A program made the translations under genes and the position numbers. A stretch of DNA of 64,000 nt, from the NCBI RefSeq assembly GCF_044704955.1, contig NC_091994.1, positions 107,260,001 through 107,324,000 of the forward strand. Reading direction: 5' to 3'. The DNA is from Pristiophorus japonicus. Taxonomy: Eukaryota. Each line of letters starts with the position of its first letter. Positions within the stretch are counted from its first letter, which is position 1. Below are positions 9,631 through 58,236 of the stretch, piece after piece. Below the pieces are notes generated by a model, which was given only the letters and a program-made list of their open reading frames with translations, was not told the origin of the DNA and searched no databases.

Positions 9631-10573
9631 GGAACAACTGTCACAATCGTGGAATCATACCCCAATCAGGGGCCCAACGCCTTCATGAATAGAGAAGGGA
9701 GAAAAGTGGTCGGGAAAAAAAAACTGTATAAGTCTCAACTCACACTGGTTATTGAATTACGTAATAGGTTAAATATTTCTTCAATATTTTCCAGGTGTTC
9801 AGAAAACCATGGCCAAATGTTTTGTCATTATATTTGAATAATAGCCATTTAGAGCCTTGCCTACAATGTGTAGCAATATCATCGATATGTCAACTTAATG
9901 TAACCATTGCTGTAATTTATTGTACATTTTAGCATACTTGTTTAATCTGCATCAATCACAGTTCTGTATTCTACTCCCTGGAGCTATTTTTGGTCTGCTT
10001 GCAAACACAATGGTCCCAGCTATATACAACAGGCATTTTGATATTTTCTGTGCAATAAAACTATATTATTATACTCCAGTGATATACAAATGTATCCCAT
10101 TGTGTGATGTGATATAAATAGAATGATTGCATCATTCTCTGATACTTTGTTAGGAGATTTTCTTTTATGCTCGAGACAAGCCCTTCATCAACAGCACAGA
10201 ACATGAGCAATTTGCAATTGTTTTCTCATTGAGGATAAACAACCACGACTTGGTTTTCTTTCTCCATGAAGTAAGATCAATCACAAGAAACCTAACTTGC
10301 TGAACATGATACCTGGATCATCATTTGCATATTGAATAGCAAAAATTTCAGAATTGAATTGTGAGGGGAGTCGAAAACTAGGAGCCATAAAATGGTAGTC
10401 ACCAATAAATCCAATAAGGAATTGGAGAAACTTCTTTACTCAGAGGTCAGAATGGGGAACTTGCTACCACATGGAGTAGTACTGAGGGGAAGCTCGATAA
10501 GAACACAAGGGAGAAAGGAAGAAAAGGAATTGCAGATAGGGTGGTTAAAGCTCATGTGGACCAAAAACGGCCT

Positions 10574-10804
10574 GTGGGGTGGATTGACCCATCCACCTCC
10601 ACGGAGGTGTGTGGGGGGCCTGACCCATCCACCTCCATGGCACGAACCTGGTATTGCAGTACTCCCAGGAACGGTGCAGTGGCTCTCGGCCTTTTGGCTA
10701 AGAGCATTGGCGCAGAGTGATCCTTGATGTGTGCAAGGTGACCTCTGGCGTTTGTGATTTGACAAAGAATTGGAAAGATTGGCTACGAATAAAAAAATTT
10801 TTTA
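10574..10804 (+). mobile_element. snRNA-derived SINE-like element type B, 5'-truncated
   Basis: U2 3' stem-loops, then the U2 5' end (CTCTCGGCCTTTTGGCTAAG), tail and A-tract. TSD AAAAACGGCCT at 10563-10573 and 10805-10815. Matches 57164-57486. Confidence 0.85.
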
Positions 10805-10809
10805 AAAAA

Positions 10810-10976
10810 CGGCCTTTTGGCTAAGATCAAGTGTAGTATCTGATCGTATCAGTTTAATATCCCCTATCTGGGGACCAAATATTAAATTGATTTTTGGAAC
10901 AGGGAGATGGAACAGAGGCTTGCTCCGTCCACTCCACGCATCGACCTGGTATTGCAGTGTTTCCAGGAACGGTGCA
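10810..10976 (+). pseudogene. RNU2: U2 snRNA-derived sequence (retroposed, non-functional)
   Basis: CGGCCTTTTGGCTAAGATCAAGTGTAGTATCTG...Sm site ATTTTTGG...CCTGGTATTGCAGT..CCAGGAACGGTGCA. Lacks the first ~9 nt and TGATACGT of stem IIa. Confidence 0.92.
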
Positions 10977-11072
10977 GCTTCCCCTCTCGGCCTTTTGGCT
11001 AAGATCAAGTGTAGTCGCGCAAAGTGATCTTTGGCGCTGGAGTTGATCTGACAAGAATGAACAAAAAAAAAA
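10810..11072 (+). mobile_element. snRNA-derived SINE-like element type A: near-full U2 + U2(6-37) + tail + poly(A)
   Basis: Direct match to U2 snRNA, followed by a second U2 5' piece and a tail homologous to the type B tail. Confidence 0.85.
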
Positions 11073-11762
11073 CACCGGCGTAGATCAGTTGAGTGAATTG
11101 GCCTGTTTCTGTATTGTAAATTCTATGTAACTGAGCAGAATAGCACAAATGCATTTAAAGGGAAGCTAGATAAGTACATGATGGAGAAAGGAATAAAAGG
11201 GCCTGTTGATAGGTTGAGATGAAGCAAGATGGGAGGAGGTTCATGTGGAGCATAAATACAGGCATAGACCTGTTGGGCTAAGTGGCCTGTTTCTCTACTG
11301 TAAATACTTGGGACCCAAAATTGGTCAATACATAAGGACTGCCCATTTCTTGGCGGTATGCCGGCAGTGCGTCATTTCAAACCGAAGAGGACAAAATTGG
11401 TTGATTTTTTTTCGGCGGTATGCCAGTGGTCTGCAGCAGGCGGTAGGTAACACAGCAGTTGATCCTGATCGACATTCTTTTCGATGGACGGTGCAGCACT
11501 GAATTGCGCATGCTCGTTTTTTTTTTCTTTCTTCCTTTTTCCACAGAAGCATTTTACCCGCGATTTCGGGGGGTCAGAGGTCACCTGCGCATGCGCAATG
11601 AGTTGCAGTCGAGGGGGAAAGTGAGAAGGGGCAGCAAGCTAGTCGCTGGTCAGTTACTTTAAAAACACATTGCAGAGTTTAAAAATATTCATAACAAATA
11701 ATAATTCTATACTTTGAACAGCAAGACATATTTTACAAAGCAAAAATCATAACATAAATATA

Positions 11763-14399
11763 ATGGAGATGTTTAAAAAAAAGTCGAAGCGCAGAAACAT
11801 CGAAAAGGACGGGAGGTTGAGGGCACCCGCTTTCGACGAGACGTAGTCACCCACCCTTCGCGAATATTACAGCGAGGTACTCCTACCTAATGAAGGGTGG
11901 TCGTGGAAAGCCCCCCCCACCCCCCAAAGGAGTACAATAGGATATGGGACAAGATAGGGGAGGCTGTGTCCTCCACAAGTACCATGGTACGCACCGGGGA
12001 AAGGTGCCCTAAGAGGTGGAATGACCTGGTGAGGGTAGCAAGAGTAAGTAATGATTTTATTTCTGCACCCCCCCATGTGCCATGTACCATGTAAATGTAG
12101 GTTCAATGTCACACGGATGATGTTATTTATCTTAAGGTTACGCCGATGTATTCGTGCTTTCAGGCAATGACAAAAGGATCAATGTAGTGTTTTAATGTGT
12201 GCGCGCGTGTGTGACCCTGTATATCTGCAATGTTGAGATTGAAGATTTTTTACTGTCATTTACTTCACTTTCTGCAGAAGACGACATCTGCAATCATCAT
12301 TATCGGCAGTCCCTCGGAATCGAGGAAGACTTGCTTCCACTCTTAGCATGAGTTCTTAGGTGGCTGTACAGTCCAATACGAGAACCACAGTCTCTGTCAC
12401 AGGTGGGACAGATAGTCGTTGCTAAGCTCCCGGGCAACTATGGCGGTGCGGCGTTCCACTGCTGTTGGAGTTGTCCATGAGGGTCCTGACGTTCCAGGTC
12501 CCGAACTTCATGTTAGAGGAGTGGAAGATGCCTGCGCATGATTTCTTTTAACGTGGGGTGATCGTTGCACGCCGGCTACCACACGGGCTTAGCTGAGCGA
12601 GGTCTTGATCCAGTGACAAGGAAGTCCAGGACGACTGGAGACCAGGCACTGCTCTATGGCCTAATTGCCTGCAGCGAAGTGTTGGCCGCAGGCTCGGCGA
12701 TGGGTAGCGCCTTTGGTGGTAGGTGGTCCAAGGTTTGTTTGAGGGCAGGCATTGGGGGGCCAGCGTTGCACTGGGGTTCAGAATGGGGGGTGGGGAATGG
12801 GGGGGGTGGGCAGGGGGTCACAGCCATTGTACTCACCATGTGCTGGAGGAGGAGAGGAGACCAGGCCATCATTGGGGAAGGAGAGGTCCAGACTGGTGGG
12901 GGGGGTGGGGGGTGGAGGGAGGAGGTGGAGGCCCGATAGCCAGGTCCAGCCGCCGAGTCGTCGCAGGAGGTCCAGGTCGCGTTGAGTCGTCCAACCGCCG
13001 CAGGAGGTCCAGCCGGAAGGCCCAAGTTGGGTCGAGTCAGCAGGAGGGCCAGCCGGGAAAGACCGATGTGCGGTGTGGCAGAAGGCCTGAGGTAGGCCCG
13101 AACTTTTGGGAATCGCGGGGTTAGGGTTAGGGTGGGGATTTAAGTCTTTAAGATCTGCAATAGCAGCTCATTAGCAGCATACAGGGGGAGGACCCACAAC
13201 CCAAGAGCCATTGACAGTAAAAGAGATCCGTGCCCTGTCCCTGTTCGGGGATAGCAACCATGCCACCACCAGTATTGGAGCTGACCCACTCACACAGGAT
13301 GGTAAGTTGAATACAATCCCCCGTCTGTGTTGCGGTCCTGTCATGTAATGTAACTGTATTGTTGGCCTCACATAATGTAATGTAAGTTTATTGCACTCTA
13401 ATGTTGGCCTCATGTGACGCACCACAATGCGTATATGGATTGTCTGTCTGCGATATGTAATACAGCAGTGGTGGACATTTAAGTATGACTGCGCTAAGTC
13501 ACTGTACTATGTACTCATGTAACCCTGACCCCTCCCCCTGGTGCCAAGCATTTTTAAATGTTGTTTTGTACTTCCAGACTCGGTCGATTCAGACCACACC
13601 TCCAGAGAGAGACCAGACAAGAGACCCACTGCCTCCACCTCTGGCGTCGCCCAGCCCTCTCCCGACCTCACCACTGGCAGAGATGATGAAGAGGAATAGA
13701 AAGAGGAAAAGCTGCTAATCCTGGAGCCAGTGGAGGTGGAGGTGGGGGTGGAGATGGAGGAAGATACACCAGTTCCATATGGGCCAGCTGGAACATCCTC
13801 CACCACCGAGTCTGTATTCAGGGGATTCCCCCATGGCTCCTCTGATTCTGGGGGACCAAGTGGTGTGCAGCAACGCATCCCCAGTGTTGCAGCGCCTTTG
13901 CCGCAGCGACAGAGGTTGGTGCATAAAAAGGTTGCTGCATGACAGATGCACTGTCGTAGGTCGAGAGCTGCTCGAGGCCATGGCTACAATAGCTGCAAAC
14001 ATCACGGCTCTATCAAAGTGACAGTCAGGGAATATGTTGGGTATGATCATCGCGATAGAGCGAACCGTCAACTCCGTCAAAGCCATGCGGCAATCAATGG
14101 GATCGGGACATGGCACGGAATCCCCCCCCCGTGCCATAGTAGTCAGGTCGACAGCACCCGAAGGTAGGGAGCTGACAGCATCTTCCAGCCCTGAAGCTGT
14201 GCCTTCCACATCACGAGTTTCTCCTGAGGCCCCATTTATTGCGCCTGCAATGTTTGACTTCCAACAGCAACAGCACTCTGGGTACCATGCTGCACGCCAG
14301 CTTACCACCACGGGGAGGTCCAGACTCAGGGCAGTGGGAAAGGGAAGGGCGGGAGTAAGAAAGCAGGGGGGGGGGGGAATAATCCCAAAGGTGGTGTAG
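11763..14399 (+). pseudogene. Harbinger Myb/SANT-like DNA-binding protein, 3 exons (~11763-12043, 12278-13301 interrupted, 13578-14399)
   Basis: YNRIWDKIGEAVSSTSTMVRTGERCPKRWNDL followed by GTAAGT. Canonical acceptors at 12277 and 13577. Contains stops and frameshifts. Confidence 0.8.
12295..13152 (-). mobile_element. Internally deleted (bipartite) RTE element
   Basis: 5' UTR plus ORF start MKFGTWNVRTL (ATG at 12511) fused at ~12421 to the RTE 3' end with (GAT)n. TSD ATCTGCAAT at 12286-12294 and 13153-13161. Confidence 0.85.
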
Positions 14400-14658
14400 C
14401 ATTCTGTCGCGGTCGTGGTCGAGGACAGTAAAGGGTCTTTTCTTGTACTTGTTCATTTAATAATCCAAGTTTGATTTTTAAAAGTTTATTCAAGTTGTTA
14501 AAAGTTTTGTTAAAGTTGTTATTAAAGTTGTTTTACAGTTATAAGCTTTACAAAGTTTTTAAATTGTTGTATGTTTGTTACATTTTTACATAAACGTTTG
14601 AATTGAATTTTAGCACTCTTGTACAGTCATCAGGGTCCCAAAAAGCAGCTCTCCATAT

Positions 14659-15860
14659 TCAAGCAAAGCATTTATTTATGAGCTGCTGACGTAACAATTT
14701 TTCAGTGGCATACGCTCTGCGTGCCCTCCGCTGTGATGTTGGGGGGGTGGTGGTGCCATGGGTTCATCTGGAAACTCCTCCCCATCCTTCTCCGCCTCAT
14801 TTTCCTCCTCTTCCTCCTCCGTCTCCTGCACTCTCTCCTCAGGTGGTCCGGCAGTCCCCTGTGGCAGTTCCTGTCCCCGTATGATTGCTAAATTATATAA
14901 CATGCAGCACACCACTGTGAACTGAGCAACCTGCTCAGGGTGGTATTGCAGCCTACACCTCCCGAGTGATCCAAGCATCGAAAGCGCTGCTTCAGCACTC
15001 CAATTGTCTTTTTGATAATATTACGTGTGGCTATATGGCTCTTATTATATCGTTGCTTGGCTTCTATCTGAGGGTTCCGCAGGGGGGGGTCAAGAGCCAG
15101 GTGGCGAGGCCGTACCCTTTGTCCCCCAGCATCCAGCATTTACATTATGGCTCAGACTTTCAACAGGTCAGACACAGTGCTCTCACGCAAGATGTGCGCA
15201 TCATGGATGCTCCCTGGAAAGTTGCCATTCACTGTCATTATGCGCTGTGTATAGTCGCATACGAGCTGCACGGTGATGGAGTGAAATCCCTTACGGTTTT
15301 GGTACACCTCCGCCTTCTGTAACGGTGCTCGCTGGGCAAAATGGGTACAGTCAACAGCACCCTGCACCTTGGGAAAGCCAGCAATGTGTGCAAATCCCAA
15401 AGCCCCATCACTGTGCCTCTCTGGTCATTGGGAAGTTTATAAATTCCATCTGGCGTGCATACGGTGCTTCGGTTACCTGTCGAATGCACTGATGAGAAGC
15501 ATACTGAGAAATACAGCATATGTCCCCAACTGATGCCTGAAAAGAGCCACATGCATAAAAGTCACCTTCATCTCGACAGAGTGCAGGGATGTTAGTTGCA
15601 CTGGGCTGCAAGTCTGCCTTAATGAGCTGCCAAATCTCATTGATCACCTCTTTTCGGAAGCGCATCCTTCGAACACACTGTCGATCGGTCAGGTCCAAGT
15701 ATGAGCGCTTCTCCCTGAAAATTCTTTGCGGGTAAGGCCTCCTCATCAGTCTGCAATGTCCTCCATTACCTTGATAACTCTGCTCAATAAACCTTCTCAC
15801 ATCGGGATCCTCCATTAGACAGGTAGTCAGCAATATAGGCTCAGATAGTACAAGCCCCAT
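14659..15860 (-). pseudogene. Harbinger DDE transposase (HARBI1-like family), frameshifted
   Basis: Motifs GAVDCTH, RKGFHSITVQLVCD, PGSIHDA, WMLGDKGY and IGVLKQRFRCL across several frames. Confidence 0.92.
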
Positions 15861-16344
15861 TCTTTTTAAATCTCCAGAATATTTTTCAATGAAAAAAATA
15901 TAACTAAAATGCCTTTGATCTTAATAGCTTATTCAGTACCAATAAAAATATATTTTCCACTGTAAATCGCACTGTAAAGTCACTGTTCACCTCAGAAATA
16001 CTGAGGTGCTGCTTTCGCTGACGGTTCTCGATTTCAAAATGGTGGCTCTGAGCACTGCCGCCCATTCCCGCCCACTTAACATCGCCTTAAAACCACCTTT
16101 TCCAGGACGGTATGTCGGTGGTATGCCATGAAAATCGGACATTTTGGGCAGTATGCGGGCGGTTCCGCACGGCGGACGATGTGCATACTGCTTGACGGTA
16201 TGTCAATGATGAATATTCCGCCGAGTGGCATGTCGGTGGTATGTAGGTGTTTTTTTCACTAAAATCGTATTTTTGAGTGGTAAGCGGGCGGTAGGTTGAT
16301 GATTTTCGGTGCCCAAGTAATATTATGTAAATGAAATTTCATGG

Positions 16345-18687: not shown

Positions 18688-19523
18688 ACAAAAGCAAAAT
18701 ACTGCAAAATCTGGAATAAAAACTGAAAATACTGGAAATCTCAGCGGGTCAGGCAGCATCTGTGGAGAGGAAGCAGGGTTAACATTTCGGGTCGATGACC
18801 CTTCGTCAGAACTGGCGAATGTTCGAAAAGAACAGATTCTTAACAAGCACTGAAAGGGGGAGGGGAAGAAAGAACAAAAGGGAAGGTCTGTGATAAGGTG
18901 GAAGACAAGAGAGATTAGAGAGACAAAAGGGATGATGGCCCAAATTCAAATGGTAATGCCAGGAATTAGAAAAATGTTAGTCGAGATAGAGTGTGAACAT
19001 AAGAACATAAGAATTAGGAACAGGAGTAGGCCATCTAGCCCCTCGAGCCTGCTCCGCCATTCAATAAGATCATGGCTGATCTGGCCGTGGACTCAGCTCC
19101 ACTTACCCGCCCTCTCCCCGTAACCCTTAATTCCCTTATTGGTTAAAAATCTATCTATCTGTGACTTGAATACATTCAATGAGCTAGCCTCAACTGCTTC
19201 CTTGGGCAGACATGGTGGGATTATGACCAACTGCCATTAGAGACCAGGAGTAAAAAAAAAGAAACAGGCTCTGAAGGGGGGGGGGGGGGGGGGGTAAAAG
19301 GAGCCAAAGATTGGCAGCGGTTACGCTCTGAAATTTTTTAATTCAATGTTTAGTCCAGAAAGCTGTAAAGTGCCTAAACGAAAGATGAAGTGCTGTTCCG
19401 CGAGCTTGCGTTGAGCTTCGTTGAAACAGTGTTGGAGACCGAGGGCAGAGATGTCAGAGTGGGAATTCAGTAGAGAATTCAAGTGACAGGCGACTGGAAG
19501 CTCAGGGTCGCACCTGCGGACTA
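18688..19523 (-). mobile_element. Penelope-like element fragment with a nested CR1 3' piece (~18996-19210)
   Basis: Same terminus as 1451 and 44715; hammerhead core at ~18776-18815. Confidence 0.75.
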
Positions 19524-22249: not shown

Positions 22250-23263
22250 CAAGCAGTACTACAGTACGCAGACGACGCTTGCGTCTGCGCACATTCAGAA
22301 GCTGAACTCCAAGCCATCGTCAACATCTTCACCGAGGTGTACGAAAGCATGGGCCTTATACCAAACATCTGTAAGATAAAAGTCCTCCACAAACCTGACC
22401 CCGCCACACAGCACTGCCCCCCGGTCATCAAAATCCACGGCACAGCCTTGGACAACGTGGAGCACTTCCCATACCTCGGGAGCCTACTATCAGCAAGGAC
22501 AGACATCGACGACGAGGTCCAACACCGCCTCCAGTGCGCCAACACAGCCTTCTGTCGCCTGAGGAAGAAAGTGTTCGAAGACCAGGCCCTCAAATCTGGC
22601 ACCAAGCTTATGGTCTACAGGGCTCCTGTATGGCTCAGAGACGTGGACCATATACAGTAGATACCTCAAATCGCTGGAGAAATACCACCAACGATGTCTC
22701 CGCAAGATCCTGCAAATCCTCTGGGAGGATCGTCGCACCAACGTTAGTGTTCTCAATCAGGCCAACATCCCCAGCATCGAAGCACTGATCACACTCGACC
22801 AGCTCTATTGGGCGGGCTCCATTGGGCGGGCCACATCGTCCACATGTCCAACACGAGACTCCCAAAACAAGTGCTCTATTTAGAACTCCTACACAGCGAG
22901 CGAGCCCCAGATGGGCAGAGGAAATGTTTCAAGGACATCCTCAAAGCCTCCTTGATAAAGTGCAACATCCCCACCAGCACTTGGGAATCGCTGGCCAAAG
23001 ACCATCCTAAGTGGAGGAAGAGCATCCGGGAGGGCGCTGAGCACAGAGTCTCGTCGCCGAGAGCATGCAGAAAACAAGCGCAGGCAGCGGAAGGAGCGCG
23101 CGGCAAACCAGATTCCCCACCCACCCTTTCCTTCAACGACTGTCTGTCCCACCTGTGACAGAGACTATAATTCCCATATTGGACTGTACAGTTACCTGAG
23201 AACTCACTTTTAGAGTGGAAGCAAGTCTTCCTCGATTTTGAGGGACTGCCTATGATGATGATG
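22250..23263 (+). mobile_element. RTE LINE 3' fragment including the RT YADD motif
   Basis: LQYADDACVCAHSE..HFPYLGS; (GAT)n tail. Confidence 0.92.
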
Positions 23264-25011
23264 ATAGGATAAGCAAAGGTAGTATTAATCTGGATTGGCT
23301 GACACGAGGCACATTTACAATGCAGTTGCACCACAAGTTACACAATTTCTAGTTGGGAGTGCTCGTCTGATATTGGAGCTGGTCGTATTGTTGGGGCACC
23401 TGACCTGATCCAAGAATGTTTGATGCGGACACTGAATGCCTTAAATGTATGGTACACCATTCACCTATATAAAGACCCTTCATGTCAATTAGCTCAAAAA
23501 TTCACCATTTAAAAAGATAAGTCCTATCGAGTAGCATGTATTAACCCCAGATTAATTGAATTACATTGTTTTATCGGTTGCATAATTACATTTTTGACAA
23601 ACACATTTCTTTCCTGCAATCACAATTCCCTCAGTCTTCAGTGATACAGCATCAAAATGACCAGACCATGTGTGCACACAGCACTATTGTGGCCAGAGTG
23701 ACGACCCAAGAATAGATCAAACAATTAGTATACATTTATTATAAAATCTTTAGTAAAACCACAGATGATCCAAGCATAGTATCCAGAAAATTATAAATTC
23801 ACAATTAAAACCCATTAGAGCTGTACCAGTTTCGAGTGCAATGGTGGTATACCTTTCAGCAACTTGGGCTGATTTTTTCCAATATCAATTGCTGATGTGT
23901 TATCAGAGAGCAAAATTTGACCTTTGTATTTTCAAAATCAATGCTAGTTTTCCTCTGTAATGACTGTAGGCATTTGCAATTAGCTATTTAAGGGTAACAG
24001 GAGAGACTACATGAGTGAAACGTGAACCAGTGTTGCTTTTTGTAAAAAATCTGGGACTAAACATATAGCTTCACACAAACTGAGGGAGCAAACAGAGAAA
24101 CTCTCCTGTGTCTGCCTCTAATGAAACCTATGAATTCAGTGTGTCGTAAATATTGCAAAGGACTCCAATACTGCAATAGTCAAAAGATAATTAAGAGATT
24201 ATTAACACTGTAATTGCCTATTATACTGTTTGAAAATTCCTGTAATGCTTAATGAATTTTGTTCTCTTGTCACTCCTGTGTGAACTTTTTGCTCAGACCT
24301 CATGTGATGATTGGTACTATAGATTGAAGTACATTTTATGGATTAGATTTATAGGATTTGAAATCTAAAACCATTTATATAGGCAGCTAAAAATGAAGGT
24401 CCACAGCAGAAATGAATACGGTGCTACCATACCCAAGGTTCTCTGTGCAAGTAATAGATGTAGCGCTCAGCCTCACCTCAAGGCAAGATTACATCAATAG
24501 GGTAAAACCCTGATAAGCTGCATGCCTTCTTACCCACCATTACCTAATTTCACTCCAGCTTCAAGGTGCAAAATCATTTTGTTAAATCCAAAATGTTGAA
24601 TACAACTTTAGTATGCATATATGATTTTATTTTTACAGATAATTCTGCAAGAATGAAGACACCTACTCAGGTATACAACATTGTCCATTCTTCCCAATTA
24701 AATTTACAAAATGATGTTCATCGCTTCACATTTGCTGACATTTTTTAAGATTGTGGGAAACTACATTGAATTCGATGCCTGATGCACGCAATCTGTATGG
24801 GGGGGATGGGTTTGGTGCCATTGTGGACTTGCAGCCCATAGCATACTGAACATTGAAGCTGAGGAAACAAGGCAGTGATTGATTCAAAAGCAAATAGCTA
24901 GTTTAAACTACACGGTACATCCATGTTTAAAAATGAGTTACAGTGCCTAAACAACTGAGTGGAGAGGGTAAACTTAGACAGCGTGCCACTGATACAAAGA
25001 ATCTACTTGTT

Positions 25012-31312: not shown

Positions 31313-31560
31313 TGTCATGTATGTTACATTATTATATATAACTGTATCCTAACATGCTATACATGACTGTAATAAGATATGACCTGTAACCACCAGCATA
31401 CCTTACCACCAGGGGTGCACTTGCAAGAGACAGGTATATAAGAACAGGTCTCAGGCAAGTGCAGCATTCCAGAGCTGTGAAATAAAGGTGCAGGTCCAGA
31501 GTGACCTTGACTTCACTACATGCCTCGTGTGAATCTGTACTGAGGGGACAGGACTTTACA
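31313..31560 (+). repeat. 5' LTR
   Basis: Direct repeat of 35736-35983; contains TATATAA and AATAAA. Confidence 0.95.
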
Positions 31561-31595
31561 GTGGCGACAAGTTACGGGATTACAGAATCCACAGA

Positions 31596-34500: not shown

Positions 34501-35713
34501 TGCATGAGCTATCACTACAAGCAGACTGCCTGATGTGGGGCAGCTGAGTAGTCATGCCTCTGCAAGGCAGAGAGGCATTTGTCCAAGAGCTCCACCGCGA
34601 GCACCCCGGGATCGTTCTCATGAAGGCCATAGCCAGATCACACGTCTTTGGAGCTCTGCGTCCGAAGGTGCACCATTTGTGCCCAACTCAGCAATGCCCC
34701 CAGGGAGGCGTCACTGAGTCCCTGGCCCTGGCCCACCAAACCGTGGTCGCGGGCGCACGTAGACTATGCGGGCCCATTCATGGGCAAAATGTTCCTCGTA
34801 GTTGTAGATGCATTTTCAAGGTGGATCGAATGCACCATTTTAAACTCGAGCACAACCTCCACCACTGTGGAGAGCTTCGCAACCATATTTACAATGCACA
34901 GAATCCCTGACATATTAGTCAGTGACAATGGTCCGTGCTTCACCAGCGCAGAAATCCAAGACTTTATAATTGACCACGGCATAAATCTCGTCAAGACGGC
35001 ACCGTTCAAGCCGGCCTCCAACGGCCAGGCGGAGAGAGCAGTGCAAATCATTGAACAACACATGCTAAAAATCCAAGGTCCCACGCTGCAGGGTTGCCTG
35101 TCGCGACTGCTGCTGGCATACAGATCTCGTCCGCACTCACTGACTGGGATCCCCCCCGGGCAACTGTTGATGAAAAAGGACTTTAAAAACAAGGCTCTTA
35201 TTAATCCTCCCAGACATGCACGAAATCATTGAGGCAAAGCGCCGTAAGCTGACTGAGTACCAAGACAGAAATTCGAGGGGGAGATGGAATGAGATAGGGG
35301 ACAAAGTGTTTGTACTAAACTGTGGCAGGGGTCCCAAATGGCTTTCAGGGACAGTAACGGGCAAGGAAGGAAACAGGCTACTGGTAGTACAAATGGACAA
35401 TGGCAAAACCTGCCGGAGGCATGTAGACCAAGTCAAAAGCAGATTTACCAACAACACTGCGGAACCAGAGGCAGACTACAATGTGAAACTCGCACCACAC
35501 CTGGTGGACAGACAGAGGGAACAACCTGAGGAAAGAGCAATCCCAACAGACAGCCCAGGCAAGTCAACAACAATCACACCAATCGAAACAGACAGCCCAG
35601 GCGAGATACCAGCAACCACACCCAAAGAAAAACAGACACCAAGGCAAACAACTGAACCACAACTCAGACGCTCCACACGAGAGCGTAGACCACCTGAGAG
35701 ACTGAACCTATAA
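31596..35713 (+). pseudogene. gag-pol polyprotein, frameshifted
   Basis: Double zinc knuckle CWRC..H..C..CRNC..GH..C, protease LDMGAS, RT FQDD, RNase H, integrase HVDYAG/SDNG/GQAER. Confidence 0.93.
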
Positions 35714-35735
35714 AGACAATAAGACCGTGGGGTGA

Positions 35736-35983
35736 TGTCATGTATCTTACATTATTATATATACCTGTATCCTAACACGCTGTACATGACTGTAATAAGA
35801 TATGACCTGTAACCACCAGCATACCTTACCACCAGGCGTGCACTTGCAAGGGACAGTTATATAAGGACAGGTCTCAGGCAAGTGCAGCATTCCAGAGCTG
35901 TGAAATAAAGGTACAGGTCCAGAGTGACCTTGACTTCACTACATACCTCGTGTGAATCTGTACTGAGGGGACAGGACTTTACA
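35736..35983 (+). repeat. 3' LTR
   Basis: 10 substitutions versus the 5' LTR by manual count. Confidence 0.95.
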
Positions 35984-41955: not shown

Positions 41956-44714
41956 GATAACATTATTACAAAGGCAAAATACTGTGGATGCTGGAAATCT
42001 GAAATAGAAAACAGAAAATGCTGGAAATACTCATTAGGCTTGCAAACATAAATTTGTATAAAATTCTGTAAGTCTCTTAAAGTACTCATGAACCTATTGC
42101 ATTAACCAGCATGGGGTGTCCATCCTTTCACACTTACTAGTATGATTTGCATTAATGTGATAGTTAAACATGAGAACAGCTCATTGAAACAGTAATTGAG
42201 ACCATGAGAATTTTCAGGCACAGCAATTTGGGTAACATTACATTTCAGTTAGATAAAGAGACCAGCATTGCTGCTAACGGAATACCTTAAGATGCAGCAT
42301 ATTTATTTTGTGCCATCTGACACTAGTCATTAAAACAGCTTGGCTATTTATGCAAATGTAGCCCTGTCTCCTTGTGATCAATCCTTTACATGGAGCTATG
42401 TCTTAAATATAACCACGGCAGAACTCTGAAATTCACACAATGTGCAAGTGGTCTAATTTTATATTCCTCCTCTCAATAATGTATTAGTTGCAATGGTATT
42501 ACAAAATAAGCACATTATATAACTCTCCAATAATTAACTAAATCCCACTTCACCAAAGAAAAGTGTCATTCAGTGGATTTTTAAGAAAAAGCAGCTCTCG
42601 AAGCTGATACTGAACATTGAACATTCCCCAAACCTGGTAACATCCAACCCAAGCATTCCCATTACAAATAAATGCACACACTGGCTTTGCATATTTAGCG
42701 ATTTATAATTTAATACTGAAATTATGAAACATACCAGATAAAAAAACCAAGTCAGGAATGATCCTTTGTTAAGCTCCACACAAACATCAGCTTATTCATT
42801 TTTGTTGTTGATATGTACTATTCAACTTAACCATACAATCTAGTTTGCACATACAAGATACAGACCAGTCCTGATAATGCCTACTGTATACCTAAATGGC
42901 CTGGGCGCAAGCCAATCTGTTACAAAACAGGATAGCTGCTGGATATCAGAAGAAAATAATGAGGTTTGCTGGAATACTGTGAGCACTAATGAGAATCAAC
43001 ACAATCACTACTGACAAGATAAATCATGCAGAAAATGCACATATTTCTCAGAAAAATAATAAACTTGATTTGAAGCATGATCAACCATAAATTGGCAGTC
43101 AACAAGGATATCCTGTTAGGAATACATATACACAAGACATGATGCACTTCCACTATGAAAACTGCAGAACAAATTTAACTCCTTTGTAGACTAATGCAAC
43201 TTATCCCTTCAGTTAAAATGTCATAGCACAGTGATCGGCATTCCACTCCTAAACCATTATAAGCAGCCTCCCAACTAACCCTTCTTCCCTCGTATCATCT
43301 TTCTCAACCACTGGAGTCCCCCAACTTGTTTTTTTTTTAAAAACCTCGTCTTCTACCAATTATTAAAAAATATCTCAGGCTTCCAATTAAATGCTGAAAC
43401 TACATTCTCATAATACAAATCATATTGAAAACTTCACCCAAGTGGCTATTATTCACTTGTGAGCATTAAACTTTTTACAGGATATTCGACTGCAAAGGAA
43501 ATCACAACTAATCCTAATTCCATCCCCCCCGTCCCTCATCTTCCAGCAGAGATCACTGAATAATGACTAAGTATGAGACTTCAACGAGTTTCTCCTCCCG
43601 AAAACAGAGGTGATGAGACAAATTTTAACGCCCTACTGATGTCCCAGCTCTGTAGCTAACTCAGAGACTGGGGTTTAAACCTGGATCTTTCTGGTGTGTA
43701 TAACTCAGCTACTCACTGGATAATCCCGCTCAGTAATCAGGAGAGCCCTAGGTCCATTGTTGTATATACATAATGAATTTATTACCGAAAAGAGTCAATA
43801 ACTGATAGCCAACTTGCTGATGAAGTCGAACACCATCAACCCTTGAAAGATCATTTGCATTGCATGTATTTATACAGAAATAATGCACTCTTCAGGTACC
43901 AAAGAGTAGAACATTTCAAATTAGTTTAAAACTATTGTCAGAAGCTTGAATTCTAAATTGGCAATTCAGCCTTCCCCAACAGAAAAAAAGCAAAAGCAAT
44001 TCAAAGTTCAGCGCTGTGTTTAAAATGGTCATATCTAGACCTGTATGAATAGAATGGACCCAGTGGTCCAAAGATGGAGATAGTTGGTACTCATGGTTTG
44101 TGGCCTCAACATTGAAACCCCAATGAGCTTCCAAACATGCATACACAGTTCTCTTGGAAAACAGCTGATTAAGGCAATAAATATAGTTAGCTGGCTTCAA
44201 GACAGAAAGCAGAAAGGAGGGGTAAAGGGTTTATTCACAGTGGCAGAAGGTGGGTAATGCTGTTCCACAAGGATCAGTGCTGGGACCACGGTTATTCAAA
44301 ATTTATATTAATGATTTAAACTTTGGAATCAAAAACACAATTTCTAAATTTGCTGCAGATAACACCAAGTTTGGGGGGTGGTGGGGGAAGCAGGGGTGGG
44401 GGGGCGGGGGGAAGAGAGTCAATGCTGAAGTGGACGGCAAAAAAATTACAGGAGGACATTAATAAACTTGCAGAATGACATATCATTGGCAAATGAATTT
44501 TAATACAGATAAATGTGAGATATTACATTTTGGTAGGAAGAACAAGGAGGTCACTCAGAGGGTGCAAGTTTGGGTGGGGTAGGGGAACAAAGGGAACTCA
44601 GAATACAAATACACAAAGAAGTGAATTATACACAAATCACTAATAGTAGCGACACAGGTTAACTAACAATGCCTTAAAAAAAGGAAACCAAGCACCCGAG
44701 TTTATTTCTAGAGG

Positions 44715-45773
44715 CAAAAGCAAAATACTGCAGATGCTGGAATCTTAAATAAAAGCAGCAAATGCTGGAAATACTCAGCAGGTCAGGCAGCATCTGTAGA
44801 GAGAAACAGAGTTAACGTTTCAGGTCGATGACCCTTCGTCAGAACTGGAAAAAGTTAGAGATGTAACAGATTTTTAAGCAAGTGTAGGGGCAGGGAAAGT
44901 GGGAGGGGAGGAAAGAACAAAAGGGAAGGTCTGTGATAGAATGGATGGCAGAAGAGATTAAAAGACAAAGGGATGATGGTATAAGGCAAAAGGAGATGGT
45001 AATGGATCAAGTTAACTAAAGATGAGTTTAGATAGGGTATAAATGGAGAAGGCAGAATTATCATTAGCTGCTGCAAGAAAGAGAGAAAAAAAACAGGAAA
45101 AAAGTATACTAAATTGAAAGTACAAAAAATGTTCAGGTGAAACAGTGATTTACTTGTACTTCTTTCAATTTAGTGTACTGTATTCGCTGTTCACGGTGTG
45201 GTCTCTATATTGGAGAGACCAAACGCAGATTGGGTGACCACTTTGCAGAACACCTCCGTTCAGTCCGTAAGCATGACCCCGAGCTTCCAGTCGCCTGAGT
45301 CTTTAATTCTCTGCTCCACTCCCATTCGGATCTCTCTGTACTCATCTTTCGTTTCGGCACTTTACAGCCTTCTGGACTCAACATCGAGTTCAACAATCTC
45401 AAACCATAATTTTTGTTATTTTTTTCTTATTGGTTTCTTTCTCTTTCCCACGGTCTCTGTTGCTGATTCTGTCGTTCTCATTTACACCCTTTCTAGACTC
45501 ATCTTTTGTTTCTTAACTTGTCCCATTACCATCTCCTTTAGCCTTGCACCATTATCACTTTTGTCTCTTAATTTCTTCTGCCTTCTATCCTATCACAGAC
45601 CTTCCTTTTTGTTCTTTCTTCCCCTTCCCCTTCCCTTACACTTGCTTAAAAATCTGTTACATCTCTATTTTTTTCCAGTTCTGACAAAGGTTAATAGAAC
45701 TGAAATATTAACTGTTTCGCTCTCCACATACGCTGCCTGACCTACTGTATATTTCCAGCATTTTCTGTTTTTA
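44715..45773. mobile_element. Penelope-like element: inverted terminal segment plus GIY-YIG 3' fragment on the + strand
   Basis: ~45165-45270 encodes NLVYCIRCSRCGLYIGETKRRLGDHFAEHLRSV. TSD TTTATTTCT(A/C)GAGG at 44701-44714 and 45774-45787. Confidence 0.85.
44808..44848 (-). ncRNA. Minimal type I hammerhead ribozyme motif in the Penelope terminal repeat
   Basis: Minus strand AGTT-CTGACGA-AGGGTCATCGACCT-GAAAC-GTTA-ACT. Confidence 0.7.
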
Positions 45774-46208
45774 TTTATTTCTCGAGGAATAGAACTGAAA
45801 AGTAGTGAAGTTATGCAAGACTTGCATCAAACCTTGGTTAGAATACACTTTGGAGTACTGCGTATAATTCTGGTCGCCATATTATAAAAAGGATATAGAA
45901 GCACTGGAGAGGTCGTTGAGAAAATTTTTCAGAATGATACAAGAAATGCGAGGGTATACCTATCAGGAAAGGATGAACAGGCTGGGTCTCTCTTCTCTCG
46001 AAAAAAGGCTGAGGGGTGACCTAATAAAGGACTTTAAAATTATGAAAGGTTTTGAGAGCGTGGATACAAAGAGCTTGTTTCCACTTGTGGGGCCATATAA
46101 GATAGTCACCAAGAAATCAAATAGGGAATTCAGAAGAAACTTCTTTGCCCAAAGAGTGGTGCGAATGTGGAACTCGCTACCACAGGGAGTGGTTCAATGA
46201 ATAATATA

Positions 46209-49855: not shown

Positions 49856-50814
49856 TGCAGCCAACAGGCACCACCTCTCAGACCTTCATCCACTGACGTT
49901 CTTGGCTTCCATGCTGTCTCTTTCCCAAATCTCTTTCACTGCGAATGTTGGCTCCATGAAGCAGTTTCCCTTTTGCACCAAGAATCTCTACCTTGAACAA
50001 CTGTTAACTTTCTATAAAGTCCGCTGAATTTTGTTCCAACAGCTGGGGAAACTCAAGCGCACTGGATAGGATACCAGAAATAAGTCACCAGACAGGCAAT
50101 CCCCTCACCACCAGCATCCAATCTCCTTCTCAACATCTGCTTTTACACTGGATTAAGTCAGTGCTGCCACCTGGCACTCATGCAAAAGGAAGCAACCCCA
50201 AAGAAAAGTTTTGATCTGATCAAGGATCTACACGCAAAATGTTAACTTGCCTGTTCCCTCCACAGATACTATTCGACCTGCTGAGTACTTCTCGGATTTT
50301 GTGTTTTTGTCCTAAAGAAAGATTAACCAAGGCTAGCAACCAAGATGACCATTTTACATCAAACCTTCCCAGCAACCAGTTTATTTGGGGTAGTCGCTAG
50401 CTGCACAAGGCAACATGTGAGGAGCCAGCAGCAGAGGCTCAGATCTTGTGCCAATGTAAAACCAGCTTTACTCAGCTCTATTTTGTCAATATTGCTATGT
50501 TCATTATTCATTTGAATTTTCCTTTTTTTCCTATGCTCGAAATACATTAAACATACTTTCCCTCCTCCCTGCACCTTCAGTGTGCTGCAGTCAACGTTTA
50601 TTTCTGCTCCAACTCATTCAATTCCAGGTCCTGAAAATTGTGGCAATCCCAATCATCAACATTTGACAGACAATTAAAAACACCAAGTCTGCCAACAAAC
50701 TATTCTATTTACCTCATCTTCTATCCTAATCTAGTCAGTCTTGGTGATGTCCAGTGGTATGGACCATTAACCGAGGTTTCTCAAAAATAAGGTTACCCGG
50801 TTGTCTATTAATCA

Positions 50815-51382
50815 CTTCAAAGCGCTGGAGAAGTACCACCAGCTCTGCCTCCGCAAGATCCTGCAAATCCACTGGGAGGACACACCAACGTCAGTGTTCT
50901 CGCTCAAGCCAACATCCCCAGCATCGAAGTACTGACCACCCTCGACCAGCTCCGTTGGGCGGGCCACATCGTCCTTATGCCAGACACGAGACTCCCGAAG
51001 CAAGCGCTCTACTCGGAACTCCTACATGGCAAGCGAGCCCCAGGTGGGCAGAGGAAACACTTCAAAGACATCCTCAAAGCCTCCTTGATAAAGTGTAACA
51101 TCCCCACCGGCACCTGGGAATCCCTGGCCCAATGCCACCCAAAGTGGAGGAAGAGCATCCGGGAGGGCACTGAGCACCTAGAGTCTCGTCGCCAAGAGCA
51201 TGTAGAAATCAAGCGCAGACAGCAGAAGGAGCGTGCGGCAAACCAGGCTCCCCACCCACCCTTTCCTTCAACCACTGTCTGCCCCACCTGTTAGAGACTG
51301 TAATTCCTGCATTGGACTGGAGCAGAGAACTCATTTTTTGAGTGGAAGCAAGTCTTCCTCGATTTCAAGGGACTGCCTATGA
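50815..51382 (+). mobile_element. RTE LINE 3' fragment
   Basis: MPDTRLPKQALYSEL and the RTE 3' terminus. Confidence 0.9.
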
Positions 51383-52550: not shown

Positions 52551-52587
52551 TCTTTGTAGACTGCAGTAACATTTCCCTTCATGTTTT
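52551..52587 (-). other. Candidate 37-nt exon of an unidentified host gene
   Basis: Minus strand: TTTCTCTTTTTTCAG acceptor and GTGAGT donor in non-repetitive DNA. Splice signals are the only support. Confidence 0.3.
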
Positions 52588-54074: not shown

Positions 54075-56897
54075 GTAAAACTACAACACCTAGCATTTGT
54101 CCAATGCCTTTAATGGAGTAAATTGCTCAAGGTACTCCACTTCAGAGAGAATAAATGGGCGATGTTTCAACAATGTTCGATGTCCCAGCCTTGCCGATCG
54201 CTGGCTCATCGCCCATTTTTTGGATGGCGATTTTCCACTCGGCGACAGGCCAGCGATGGCAAATGGGCGATGCAAAAGGTCAGCGATGTGACACTTGCCC
54301 AAAGAATGGCCAGCAATGTGGAAGGCAAAAGCTTCCTAGCAACGGCCTTCTGCGCATGCGATTTTAATTTTTTTTTCCAGTTGACAGCATTTTGCGCGTT
54401 TCGGGAGGTCAGAGGTCAACCAAAAATTAAAATCGCATGCGCAGAAGGCCATTGCGGGGGGGAGAGAGAGAGAGGAGAGATAAAGGAAAGGGTTGTTGGA
54501 GTTGGAGGGAGGAGATTTGTAGAGTTTTGTTCAGTTTTTTGCCGTTGGAGAGCTGGAGATTTGGATAAAGTGTAGAGATGTCATCATCATCATCGTTCGA
54601 GAAAATGGATAAGGATCGGAAAAGGGAAAAGGCGTTTTCGGACGAGGCCAATGAGGCCCTCGTCAAGGAGGTCCACTCCAGGTGGGCAGAACTTACCCGG
54701 GGTGCTAAGGGTAAACCTCCTCCCCGGGTGTACAGGAAGCTGTGGTCTGAGATTGCAGACATCGTCTCCTCGGCATCCCAGGAGGTGAGGGGGCCCGACC
54801 AGTGCCGGAAGCGCTGGAACAGCCTTGTGGCGTTAGCTAGAGTAAGTACAGATTTTATATTGTATTGAAGAAGTTTGTAATTAACATTGTAATAGTAAAT
54901 CTCCTGGATTGAAATAAATTTTGTAAATTCTTACATACATATGCATATATACATATGTAGATCCAAAACACGCTGATCTTTGTTATAATCGTGGATCTCA
55001 TTTACATGTAACGTTTGAAGCTGTTGTTTTTCCATGAAACTACCATGTCAATTAGCTCATGCCATGCTCTTTTCACATTTGCAGAAGATGATATCTAACA
55101 GGAGGGCGCAGCGGAGGTGCACCGGAGGGGGCACTGCTTACATGCAAACTTTTAAGTGATCTGGAGGAGCGTGCAGCAGCGCTGGTGGGGACCACCAGTC
55201 GCTCGGCCACCAGCTGTGGTGTTGCGGGACCCTCCCATGAGTCACGCGAGTAATGTGTGAAACAGTTTTAAAGTAATGTAATATCATTTAATTAAAATGC
55301 AATGTGCGGATGATGTCATGTCATGTCATATCATGAATGCAGCCTTTGTGCTACTCTCAGGTTAACAACATAAGAACATAAGCAATAAGAACAGAGGATG
55401 GTCATCTGGCCAACTGTCCCCTTCTCTAAAACCCGTGTCCATCTGCGACTGATGCAGCCGCAGCAGGTTTTCTGGGCAGTTAAATCCATATGATACATTA
55501 ATATGTAAAGTCTTGTCGGTAATGTGTACCCTTCTATTCGAATAAGCTCAATTGGGATTTGAAGGTCAACCAGAGGCGCAAGTGGAGACCACACAGGAGG
55601 AGGAGGAGGATACAACCGAGCCAGAGGAGGAGGAAGAAGAAATGGAGGAAGCCATAGAGGAGGATGAACCTGCGGCCAACATGGAAGTTGCTATTGCGAC
55701 TGAAGAGGCACCAGGACCAAGCAGCATGCAGCCGGCAACGCCAAGGCACGTTATAGTACGCACGGCGACCCCACAGAAGTCGGGTCAGCGAGCTCAGCAC
55801 TTGCCTGCAGTGGACGATCGGATAGGGGCCTTGAGCACCCTGTGCGAGGAGACGGTCGCGATAAATTGAGAGCATCTCCAGCGGTTCGCGCGGGAATTTC
55901 CCCGGGTGTCTGCTGCTCAAGCGGAGGCAATGCAGCAGGCGCTGGAGGAGTTGCATGGACAGACCGCCGCCACTAATGCACTGCGGTATGCGATGGTGGC
56001 TGAGCACGATGCTGCACCCGAAGGTGCCGTGATCGATCGAAGCACAACCCCCACATCACGCAAGCGAGTCAGGAGGAAGCAGTTCCTTCTGACTTGGAAG
56101 ACGATGTCCCTGCCCGTGCTTCATCTTCCCCTCCAACACCCCCCCCCCCCCCCCCCCCCAACAGCCGATCACGCCACCATCACCCCCACCATGGCAGGAA
56201 GTCTCGCCATTGCCCGCTGCATTGTCTCGGTACCGGGGACCAAAATGGGCAGGTGGGGCTAGGACACGGGGTGGGTCCAGGATCTGGAGGGAAATGTGGC
56301 TGCAGGTAGAGAGGGGGGGGGGTGTTATTGTTGTTCATGTTTTTCTTGTTCTATTTTGTTACTGTTGGGGGGATGGTGGCTGGGCGGGGGGGGGGTTGTG
56401 TTTAAAATTGAAATTGTTAATAATAAAATGTTGTTGAATCTTACAATTGTTGTGCATTGTCTTTTAATAACGTATGTAAACTTAAAACATTAATGCAATT
56501 GTTGTACATTTAAATATAAAGAAGTATAAATGTGAGTAGATCTATCGATAAAAGGATGTTAAAAGCCCCTTGTTTTAGCAGCCTGCTCCCTTCCTCCGAC
56601 GTTCAAAATGACATCCATAGTGCCGAGTTCTGTGAGGAAGGCCAGGAAAAAGCAACTATTCTCCAGCGATGTTCTCGGCGAGCTATCAGCCCGGCAATGT
56701 GCCGACGATGTGCCAAAAGTTGGGCTGGATGATGTGCGGGCGATCACCTCGGCGATCAGCTTGGCGATGTGAGGCGAAAGTCAGGGGGATCATTTTTCGG
56801 CAATGATCCAGCCCGAATTTCCAATTTTTTGTTAAAATGGGCAATGAAAGACCGTTTTGGGCGGTATACGGGTGATGTGAAGTGGGAAGTCTAGCCC
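54075..56897. mobile_element. Harbinger derivative retaining only the Myb/SANT gene
   Basis: Right end GGGAAGTCTAGCCC and GGCGAT-rich subtermini at both ends. The left TIR is not resolved, so the start is approximate. Confidence 0.75.
54578..56310 (+). pseudogene. Myb/SANT-like (MSANTD-type) protein, 3 exons (54578-54841, 55085-~55245, ~55565-56310)
   Basis: AFSDEANEALVKEV..LWSEIADIV..RGPDQCRKRWNSL then GTAAGT. Acidic linker; lesions in the later exons. Confidence 0.82.
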
Positions 56898-56972
56898 ATA
56901 GGTTTTGAAGAGGTTGTTAAGGCAGGGAGAGAAGTAGCAAGGCAAAGAAATTTAAGAGAGTAGAGTTTGAGA

Positions 56973-58236
56973 ATCATCATCATAGGCAGTCTCTGAAAAT
57001 CGAGGAAGACTTGCTTCCACTCTAAAAGCGAGTTCTTAGCGACTGAACAGTCCAATACGGGAATTACAGTCTCTGTCACAGGTGGGACAGACAGTCGAAG
57101 GAAAGGGTGCGTGGGACTGGTTTGCTGCACGCACCTTCCGCTGCCTGTGCTTGCTTTCTGCATTTTTTTTTTAAATCGTAGCCAATCTTTCCAATTCTTT
57201 GTCAGATCACAAACGCCGGAGGTCACCCTGCGCTAATGCGCTTAGCCAAAAGGCCGAGAGCCCAAGCACCGTTCCTGGAAGTACTGCAATACCAGGTTCG
57301 TGCCATGGAGGTGGATGGGTCAGCAACCCCACACACCTCCGTGGAGGTGGATGGGTCAAGCCACCCCACCCATCTCCTATTTCCAAAAAGCATAGGAGAA
57401 CCACCTTCCTGATCCAGGGAGAACCACGTTGGGGTCATGGTTACTCCCCTGTCAGGTCAGTTACGCATGATCTTAGCCAAAAGGCATTGGCTTTCTGCAT
57501 GCTCTAGGCGATGAGACTCGAGGTGCTCAGCGCCCTACCGGATGCTCTTCCTCCACTTAGGGCGGTCTTTGGCCAGGGACTCCCAGGTGTTGGTGGGAAT
57601 GCTGCATTTTATCGAGGAGGCTTTGAGGGTGTCCTTGAAATGTTTCCTCAGCCCACCTTGGGCTCGCTTGCCATGTAGAAGTTCCAAGTAGAGCACTTGC
57701 TTTGGAAGTCTTGTGTCAGGCATGCGAATAATGTGGCCCGCCCAGCAGAGTTTGTCGAGTGTGGTCAGTATTTCAATGCTGGGGATGTTGGCTTGATCAA
57801 GGACGCCAACGTTGGTGCGTCTGTCCTCCCAGCGGATTTGCAGGATTTTGCGGAGATATTGTTGGTGGTATTTCTCCAGCGATTTGAGGTGTCCACTGTA
57901 TATGGTTCTCGTCTCTGAGCCATACACGAGGGCGGGCATCACTAAAGCCCTGTAGATCATGAACTTGGTGGTAGATTTGAGGGCCTCATCTTCGAACATT
58001 CTTTTCCTCAGGCAGCGTTGGCGCACTGGAGGCGGTGTTGAATCTCATTGTCGATGTCTGCCCTTGCTGATAATAAGCTCCCGAGATATGGAAAGTGGTT
58101 CACGCTGTCCAGGGCTGCACCGTGGATCTTGATGACTGGGAGGCAGTGCTGTGTTGCGGGGTCAGGTTGGTGGAGGACCTTTGTCTTACGGATGTTTAGT
58201 GTAAGGCCCATGCTTTCGTACGATGCAGTGAATATG
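56973..58236 (-). mobile_element. RTE LINE 3' fragment hosting a U1/U2 element
   Basis: HFPYLGS, WAGHIIRMPDTRLPKQ, (GAT)n tail. Confidence 0.92.
57164..57486 (-). mobile_element. snRNA-derived SINE-like element type B, U2-U1-U2-U2 mosaic
   Basis: TSD TTG(G)CTTTCTGCAT at 57151-57163 and 57487-57500, poly(A), and recognisable U1 and U2 segments. Confidence 0.88.

Follow-up and report, generated by a model that had tools for sequence, protein, structure and literature searches.

A probable family of U1/U2-headed short retroposons at two insertion sites in a probable cartilaginous fish

This locus raises the question of whether short segments built from U2 snRNA pieces are one-off U2 pseudogenes or copies of a retroposon family resembling SINEU, a group described in PMC4494074 as limited to crocodilians, with mostly old members and no known transcription route. 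Judging from a 64-kb window (the whole stretch of DNA analysed here), its three elements, A, B and C, likely belong to one SINEU-type family of non-autonomous retroposons, whose build and proposed mechanism are detailed below; the host is probably a cartilaginous fish.

Structure of the three elements

All three elements are recovered at their predicted positions, A at 10574-10804 (+), B at 10810-11072 (+) and C at 57486-57164 (-), and each runs from U2 3' sequence through a short linker into U2 5' sequence, followed by the shared tail and an A-rich end (Table 1). Because A and B occupy one site, the three copies stand for two independent loci, not three. The proposed module order holds for the U2-3'/U2-5' junction, the tail and the poly(A), found in all three, but the head of B is a nearly complete U2. 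The dimer junction has an identical start in A, B and C, and the two copies with an intact 5' end (B and C) both begin at U2 nt 10-12. Before the A-rich end, A, B and C measure 217, 253 and 312 nt respectively, and the three copies have three different structures. All are shorter than 500 bp, non-coding and 3'-polyadenylated, as is typical of the SINEU class, with no Pfam match in the overlapping frames scanned, and their U1- or U2-derived 5' regions are confirmed by Rfam U2 and U1 matches. In addition, a 14-mer of U2 stem-loop I occurs five times in the window, every time within A, B or C, and any match to it appears in 0 of 100 shuffles.

The 5' third of C, overlooked in the original prediction, carries U1 pieces and U2 nt 12-29, giving the order U2-U1-U1-U2-U2-tail. 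Here Rfam RF00003 is matched over 1-65 with 20.2 bits and E=7e-4 (for a 71-nt query stretch chosen after inspection), and a second U1 piece, read by eye, shares 9 of 10 loop-I positions with the Rfam U1 consensus; the following Sm-site and stem-loop III region gives a truncated match to Rfam U2 98-192 at E=0.061. Since C contains U1 as well as U2, the likeness to SINEU is more strongly supported than the original prediction knew. As for B, it is rejected as a functional U2 snRNA gene, being without nt 1-9 and 7 nt of stem IIa and lying within a CR1-like remnant. It exceeds the Rfam U2 cut-off (116 against 46 bits), and annotation will wrongly label copies of this sort U2 genes or pseudogenes.

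Table 1. Features of elements A, B and C (window coordinates)
Element	Feature	Positions	Strand	Support
A	5' TSD copy, AAAAAC+GGCCT; first 6 bp also the 5' TSD copy of B	10563-10573	+	same 11-mer at 10805-10815
A	5'-truncated, tandemly duplicated segment derived from U2 stem-loop III	10574-10639	+	62/66 identical to C 57369-57304
A	U2 stem-loop IV	10640-10677	+	37/38 identical to C; aligns to B U2
A	inner U2 5' piece (~nt 6-29) and junction to tail	10683-10709	+
A	non-snRNA tail, two diverged 21-nt units (10710-10730, 10731-10751; 13/21 alike)	10710-10790	+
A	A-rich end, interrupted by six T	10791-10804	+
A	3' TSD copy, overlapping the start of B	10805-10815	+	11-mer repeat
B	near-complete U2, nt 10 to ~190, 7-nt gap in stem IIa	10810-10982	+	Rfam RF00004, 116.2 bits, E=8e-23
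B	inner U2 5' piece (~nt 6-37); its end falls on the target position of Keno/Utopia	10984-11015	+
B	tail, shorter variant of the shared tail	11016-11062	+	no Rfam family at E<3
B	poly(A) merging with 6-bp 3' TSD copy (11068-11073)	11063-11073	+	single site copy in CR1-like paralogues
C	5' TSD copy 57500-57490, reaching 57487 if one indel is allowed	57487-57500	-
C	5'-most U2 piece (nt 12-29) plus 4 nt	57464-57485	-
C	U1 5' end and stem-loop I (model ~1-48), 5' splice-site-pairing stretch mutated	57417-57463	-	Rfam RF00003
C	second, shorter U1 piece (loop I and 3' strand of stem I)	57395-57416	-	aligns to first U1 piece
C	U2 Sm-site region (from model nt 98) and two tandem 36-nt stem-loop III copies	57304-57392	-	TRF period 36
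C	U2 stem-loop IV	57266-57303	-	34/40 to B U2
C	inner U2 5' piece (~nt 6-29) and junction	57234-57260	-
C	non-snRNA tail	57175-57233	-	no Rfam match up to E=10
C	poly(A)	57164-57174	-
C	3' TSD copy	57153-57163	-

Insertion sites and host repeats

The target site duplications reported earlier are found again, 11 bp for A and 11 bp for C (13-14 bp when one indel is allowed). The insert of C is absent from all four RTE-like paralogues aligned across the site, and that of A and B from all three aligned CR1-like 3'-end paralogues, one of which has an unrelated 14-nt indel there. With poly(A), TSDs and paralogous host repeats lacking the insert, A, B and C are genuine retro-insertions. A inserted later than B, at the same nick: GGCCT, the last 5 bp of the 5' TSD copy of A, duplicates the first bases of B and is not A-family sequence, as C reads GATGG at that place. 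Among 31 runs of A>=8 in the window, a flanking repeat of >=10 bp is found only at that of C and at one A-rich 10-mer 4.2 kb away, the interrupted tail of A falling outside a scan of such runs. Both nicks lie between C and A, following GAGC or GACC, a sample of two sites too small to support a target preference.

The flanks of all copies are LINE remnants, an RTE-like copy (~58241-56973) for C and a CR1-like remnant for A and B, and no U2 gene or promoter is found adjoining the elements in these flanks. The RTE-like host of C is 85% alike to two paralogues (583/682 and 330/388), compared with 94% between A and C. Its protein has as the best of nine matches one from whale shark, at 63% identity; named matches of the Gypsy pol in the window are only distant (~47-50%), to mollusc and teleost proteins. 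The balance of these matches points away from a crocodilian host.

The host bears on whether the elements are homologous to crocodilian SINEU, through horizontal transfer or through very ancient common descent alongside a Keno/Tx1 partner, or even are SINEU itself in a non-shark window. The module order of C parallels SINEU-1C/H and SINEU-2, SINEU-3 has a 32-bp U2 5' piece with a ~40-bp non-U2 3' end (PMC4494074), and the host identity comes from that single named match. However, the match is to a shark, neither site lies in a Mariner element as many SINEU copies do, SINEU was not found outside crocodilians among the genomes of 2015 (PMC4494074), and shared source RNAs alone predict parallel structure. 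We thus regard such homology as very improbable.

Shared descent and the tail

The family status depends mainly on A and C. They had been called near-identical copies 47 kb apart; they are indeed on opposite strands, 46 kb apart, but are identical at 183 of 195 positions (93.8%) with a 21-nt indel in addition, an extra 21-nt tail unit being present in A and absent from C. They share the derived 36-nt duplication of stem-loop III, a shortened U2/tail junction and a longer tail end, and in stem-loop III they have the same substitutions relative to B, with 62/66 identity to each other and 24/35 to the U2 of B. The common duplication argues for descent from one master rather than for one-off pseudogenes, by a criterion of shared derived structure that is applied to two copies, A and C. 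As each of these two also has its own TSDs, the predicted family, not a set of U2 pseudogenes, is supported.

The same evidence weighs upon the alternative that the elements are independent chimeric retrocopies, in which a LINE reverse transcriptase, having copied a LINE 3' end as the tail, switched to U2 or U1 snRNA and no self-propagating family exists. Template-switch chimeras of snRNA and LINE are known across LINE clades according to the part of PMC4476161 cited here, and the head of B, being near canonical U2, could be a fresh addition. Against this stand the duplication and substitutions common to A and C and the junction with one start in all three copies; U1 and U2 chimeras are also reported as rare in mammals in that part of PMC4476161. 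Furthermore, tail-only LINE ends should outnumber the chimeras, following the argument of PMC4494074, and none is present in the window. Independent chimeras are accordingly very unlikely in our view, and a family with a common master is preferred.

The tail itself is shared by all copies. The tail of B is homologous to those of A and C: in each comparison, none of 20,000 shuffles and none of ~19,670 segments drawn at random from the window reaches the score. A search of the window by nhmmer --max with tail, body and head profiles for further copies or a partner LINE finds only A, B, C and their U2 5' pieces, the next-best tail match beyond them having E=1.1, and pattern scans of bacterial and archaeal genomes give 0 further copies, an expected result that carries no information on the family. 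The LINEs that abound in the window terminate in microsatellites rather than poly(A) and lack this tail. A Pfam scan covering 150 of the window's 267 stop-to-stop frames of >=70 aa, the longest ones, recognises no Tx1 or L1 element and no host gene. A known RNA (C/D snoRNA, tRNA remnant, or U6/U4 fragment) is rejected as the source, as the tail of C has no Rfam match up to E=10; for the tail of B and the tail end of C, Rfam gives just unrelated matches with E>=0.5. A conserved tail hairpin is not supported by the folding z-scores (0.28, -0.27 and 0.15). Rfam matches of stem-loop III repeats to a prion pseudoknot, and miRNA matches at 1454-1562, lie below gathering scores and are taken as chance.

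These results also concern the reading of A, B and C as 5'-UTR/3'-end remnants, that is, internal-deletion derivatives, of a Tx1 LINE with snRNA-derived heads, which would make them a non-autonomous LINE rather than a SINE. Some crocodilian Tx1-Mar families do have U1- or U2-derived 5' ends (PMC4494074), and poly(A) and TSDs are compatible with either reading. Since head and tail are not separated by any coding remnant, the tail has just 45-80 nt, and no such LINE occurs within the window, we take this origin to be unlikely. On another reading, a single unusual cellular RNA maintained by host selection, either a variant snRNA or a chimeric non-coding gene, gave rise to the elements as processed pseudogenes. 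Such a view might appeal to the stem-loops of C, whose U1 part and two stem-loop III copies all still fold (z between -2.9 and -3.4), and to two stem-loop III pairs altered on both sides. Yet the folds are inherited from the source snRNAs, and the covariation score is reached by 96 of 500 shuffles, so selection on stem-loop III structure is not supported; three structures would require at least three source genes, and functional motifs (U1 5' end, U2 stem IIa) are damaged. This reading is very improbable.

For the preferred family, the window, picked for this feature, holds 3 copies at 2 loci in 64 kb. Were it a typical stretch, this would correspond to 4-113 loci per Mb (Poisson). However, ~300 copies inserted at random into a genome of 3-5 Gb already yield one such window, so a high copy number does not follow.

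Proposed mechanism and comparison with known systems

We propose a core unit of a short U2 5' piece, a 45-80-nt tail and poly(A), to which further U2 and U1 pieces would have been added at the 5' end over time via template jumps in reverse transcription, giving structurally different subfamilies. Poly(A), TSDs of 6-14 bp, the 5' truncation of A and the empty paralogous sites show that the copies were inserted by target-primed reverse transcription. The enzyme would most likely be that of a poly(A)-tailed LINE of the Tx1 clade; if the host is a shark, a Tx1 partner is likelier than L1, as whale shark is reported to have Tx1-like repeats and no full LINE1 in the part of PMC8455134 cited here. 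A classical Pol III SINE with a tRNA, 7SL or 5S head is rejected, there being no head with an internal Pol III promoter, and the window has no tRNA gene according to ARAGORN. At the tail start of A and C, a 12-mer resembles the A box with one mismatch but has no B box downstream, and no A+B box pair occurs in any of the three copies at <=1 mismatch to the box consensus. The copies contain 1, 3 and 3 internal runs of T4 or longer. These T4-T5 runs and the missing box pair suggest that transcription is most likely by Pol II, started outside the element. The mechanism we tentatively favour, at somewhat less than an even chance, is that the external U2 promoter drives a master copy located within a U2 gene or immediately after one. 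Against it, none of the copies here adjoins a U2 gene or promoter.

Insertion of a Keno-type element at U2 nt 37/38, with only its 3' end remaining, may have given rise to the core. Against such an origin, the breakpoint at nt 37 is seen in B only (one of three copies), A and C ending near nt 29, and U2 retrocopies are described in part of PMC5322556 as breaking at defined single-stranded sites without Keno. The whole scenario, in which U1/U2-headed SINEs had a second, independent and uncatalogued origin in cartilaginous fishes through a Keno-type Tx1 birth at U2 nt 37/38, with masters borrowing the U2 promoter in or behind U2 genes, is doubtful. If true, it would explain both the transcription of SINEU-type elements and their continued 5' gain of snRNA pieces.

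Among known systems, the chondrichthyan SINEs SacSINE1 and CmiSINEs are likewise short retroposons of cartilaginous fish, but the cited part of PMC5499810 describes them as tRNA-headed with L2 tails, and the term "snRNA" has 0 occurrences in its main text. Chimeras of snRNA and LINE and tailless U2 retropseudogenes, as far as described in parts of PMC4476161 and PMC5322556, have the same source RNAs and template-switch chemistry; they are one-off events, however, whereas the derived structure common to A and C points to re-amplification from a master. Keno (Tx1 clade) and Utopia target U2 genes, with the Keno site at U2 nt 37 (parts of PMC6136364 and PMC4640811), where the inner U2 piece of B stops. 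Their downstream flank is described there as beginning at U2 nt 39; A, B and C differ from them in having no coding sequence, in being located outside U2 genes and in not continuing into U2 nt 39 and beyond. The nt 37 break offers a concrete and testable route from a U2-targeting retrotransposon to a promoterless SINE.

The closest parallel, in module structure as described, is SINEU-1/-2/-3 (Kojima 2015, PMC4494074). Both have a length below 500 bp, U1/U2-derived 5' parts, a non-snRNA 3' part, poly(A), ~10-bp TSDs and internal oligo(T), with no partner LINE found that carries the same tail. Recurrent 5' addition, partial duplication of snRNA pieces and U1-to-U2 fusion are also common to both, for SINEU-1 is reported to have U2 added onto U1-headed forms and partly duplicated U1, and SINEU-2 to have U1 then U2 (PMC4494074). 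A and B form a tandem insertion with a TSD between, as reported for SINEU-3 in the same paper. In contrast, the host here is a probable shark, the insertions are in CR1-like and RTE-like remnants and not in Mariner-N4_AMi, and the head-to-tail U2-3'/U2-5' dimer junction and the stem-loop III duplication are not in the main text of PMC4494074. A cartilaginous-fish family with the same stepwise gain of U1 and U2 would make snRNA-headed SINEs a repeatable outcome where Tx1-type LINEs exist.

Structure of the three elements

The original prediction placed three U2-derived retroposon insertions, here A, B and C, in the window, and all three are found at the positions it gave. Over the whole window, an Rfam scan with E up to 1 as the limit yields nine matches, of which two are to U2, and a 14-mer of U2 stem-loop I occurs five times, always inside A, B or C (0 of 100 shuffles gave any). 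Searches of the window with BLASTN and with nhmmer profiles of the tail (the shared non-snRNA 3' part ahead of the poly(A)), the body and the head detect no fourth copy.

Features of the window and composition of the insertions
Feature	Position	Strand	Details
Element A	10574-10804	+	
Element B	10810-11072	+	5' to 3': U2 from nt 10 to about nt 190, followed by a second U2 piece (about nt 6-37), 47-nt tail, poly(A)
Element C	57486-57164	-	5' part: U2 nt 12-29, U1 5' end with stem-loop I, second shorter U1 piece; 3' part: U2 Sm-site region and duplicated stem-loop III, stem-loop IV, U2 about nt 6-29, tail, poly(A)
U2 Rfam match	10795-10982		116 bits
U2 Rfam match	57496-57300		31 bits
End of A	10791-10809		seven A, then six T and six A
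Two U1 pieces of C	57398-57463	-	
Four bases past C's 5'-most U2 piece	57464-57467	-	
RTE-like LINE family	45-929, 2482-3123, 12292-12421, 22319-23264, 50813-51382, 56973-58241		ends in (ATG)n; similarity among copies about 78-88%
Gypsy-type LTR retrotransposon	31313-35983	+	LTRs 238/248 (96%) identical
Dispersed repeat with long internal palindrome	1453-1603, 18689-18938, 41967-42033, 44715-45106, 45417-45777		sub-threshold miRNA matches in Rfam for copy 1454-1562
Harbinger-like pieces	15155-15920 (-), 54569-54865 (+)		DDE_Tnp_4 nuclease and Myb/SANT domain
CR1-group ORF2 start (endonuclease domain)	62850-63878	+	after GA-rich stretch, runs towards window end

The long U2 part of B misses 7 nt of stem IIa, and the stem-loop III duplication in C has a 36-nt period. 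The U1 sequence in C gives a truncated Rfam match (RF00003 1-65, E=7e-4), which was scored on a 71-nt stretch picked after the likeness had been noticed and would not be significant at the scale of the whole window; this stretch sits inside an element already built of snRNA. The two U1 pieces jointly fold as one extended hairpin (z = -3.0). In addition, there is a resemblance between the U2/tail junction of the family and the four bases past C's 5'-most U2 piece, a hint that this piece may derive from a family transcript and not from U2 itself.

Element A is related to C and truncated at its 5' end; the two are identical at 183 of 195 positions and agree at 62 of 66 in the stem-loop III duplication and at 36 of 37 at the tail end. 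A also has a second 21-nt tail unit, like the first at 13 of 21 positions; a recent slip would not have left them so diverged, and A and C therefore probably descend from different masters (source copies). The end of A is a near-palindromic run and not plain poly(A). The tail of B is homologous to those of A and C, with a score reached by none of 20,000 shuffles, and has neither a credible Rfam match nor unusual folding.

Insertion sites and surrounding repeats

A, B and C are true insertions, and RNA-mediated insertion with poly(A), target-site duplications and 5' truncation is shown. C interrupts an RTE-like LINE remnant, one of the (ATG)n copies, and the 11-14-bp stretch flanking it twice is single in all four paralogues aligned across the site. 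A CR1-like remnant holds A and B together in its 3' end; both are missing from three of three paralogues. B has a 6-bp duplication merging with its poly(A), and the 11-mer flanking A consists of this 6-mer plus the first five bases of B, bases foreign to the A family (chance about 1 in 1,000). This indicates that B came first and A followed at the same nick, which leaves two independent loci.

RTE-like, CR1-like, Gypsy and Harbinger-like remnants predominate in the window; these repeat types look typical of sharks. The RTE-like frame hosting C has as the best of its nine matches a whale-shark protein, with 63% identity, while the names of the proteins matched by the Gypsy and the endonuclease frames are uninformative about the host. 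The host is probably a cartilaginous fish. The Gypsy-type element carries zinc knuckle, RT, RNase H and integrase domains across several frames, its nearest database proteins being only about 50% identical.

Family status, partner LINE and transcription

Two insertions, A and C, have in common the internal duplication, the stem-loop III substitutions and the junction joining the U2 3' end to a U2 5' piece, which supports the earlier claim of a family rather than one-off pseudogenes. Independent template switches making each insertion separately do not easily explain the elements, since they would hardly produce the same three features twice and predict many LINE ends bearing the tail, of which the window has none; the same argument from missing tail-bearing LINE ends was applied to SINEU, the crocodilian U1/U2-headed SINEs (PMC4494074). 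We consider the SINEU-like retroposon family, structurally rich and represented by three copies at two loci, to be real. The U1 modules and a break at U2 nt 37 strengthen the original prediction, which the small sample limits: taking the window as typical, two loci in 64 kb correspond to 4-113 per Mb. With an assumed genome size of 3-5 Gb, about 300 random copies would give one such window, and 100 copies about 0.1.

The common LINEs of the window end in microsatellites and lack the shared tail. Parts of a whale-shark study describe Tx1-like repeats as present and full L1 as absent (PMC8455134), and for SINEU the attribution is to Tx1-Mar, an element that groups with Keno, a U2-targeting LINE of the Tx1 clade (PMC4494074). 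Together, these observations suggest that the partner is most likely a Tx1-clade LINE.

The elements contain internal T runs and no A+B box pair, which argues against Pol III transcription. Both copies with an intact 5' end begin at U2 nt 10-12, and the inner U2 piece of B is the one ending at nt 37. The Keno insertion point is placed 37 nt into U2 in a passage of PMC6136364, citing Kojima and Fujiwara 2004, and the downstream U2 flank is stated to begin at nt 39 in a passage of PMC4640811. If a Keno-type element had inserted into a U2 gene in truncated form, the product would be exactly 'U2 1-37 + short tail + poly(A)' driven by the U2 promoter, and subsequent template jumps would then have added U2 and U1 pieces. 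We propose this model tentatively, leaning slightly to the doubtful side, as its strength is limited by the single breakpoint, by U2 retrocopies, which have favoured single-stranded break sites even in the absence of Keno (according to a passage of PMC5322556), and by an equal contender for transcription, read-through that starts at flanking promoters, an idea put forward for SINEU-2 (PMC4494074).

Comparison with SINEU

Among the literature matches listed, whose scope leaves aside most subscription journals and Repbase Reports, no U1/U2-headed SINE is reported for cartilaginous fishes; that the family has already been entered in Repbase or Dfam is a real possibility, if the less probable case. 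Set beside SINEU-1, -2 and -3, with the crocodilian families compared by description and not by consensus, the family of A, B and C works alike and has the testable features of the class. Most likely, it is a SINEU-like retroposon of an already known type, in a lineage new for it.
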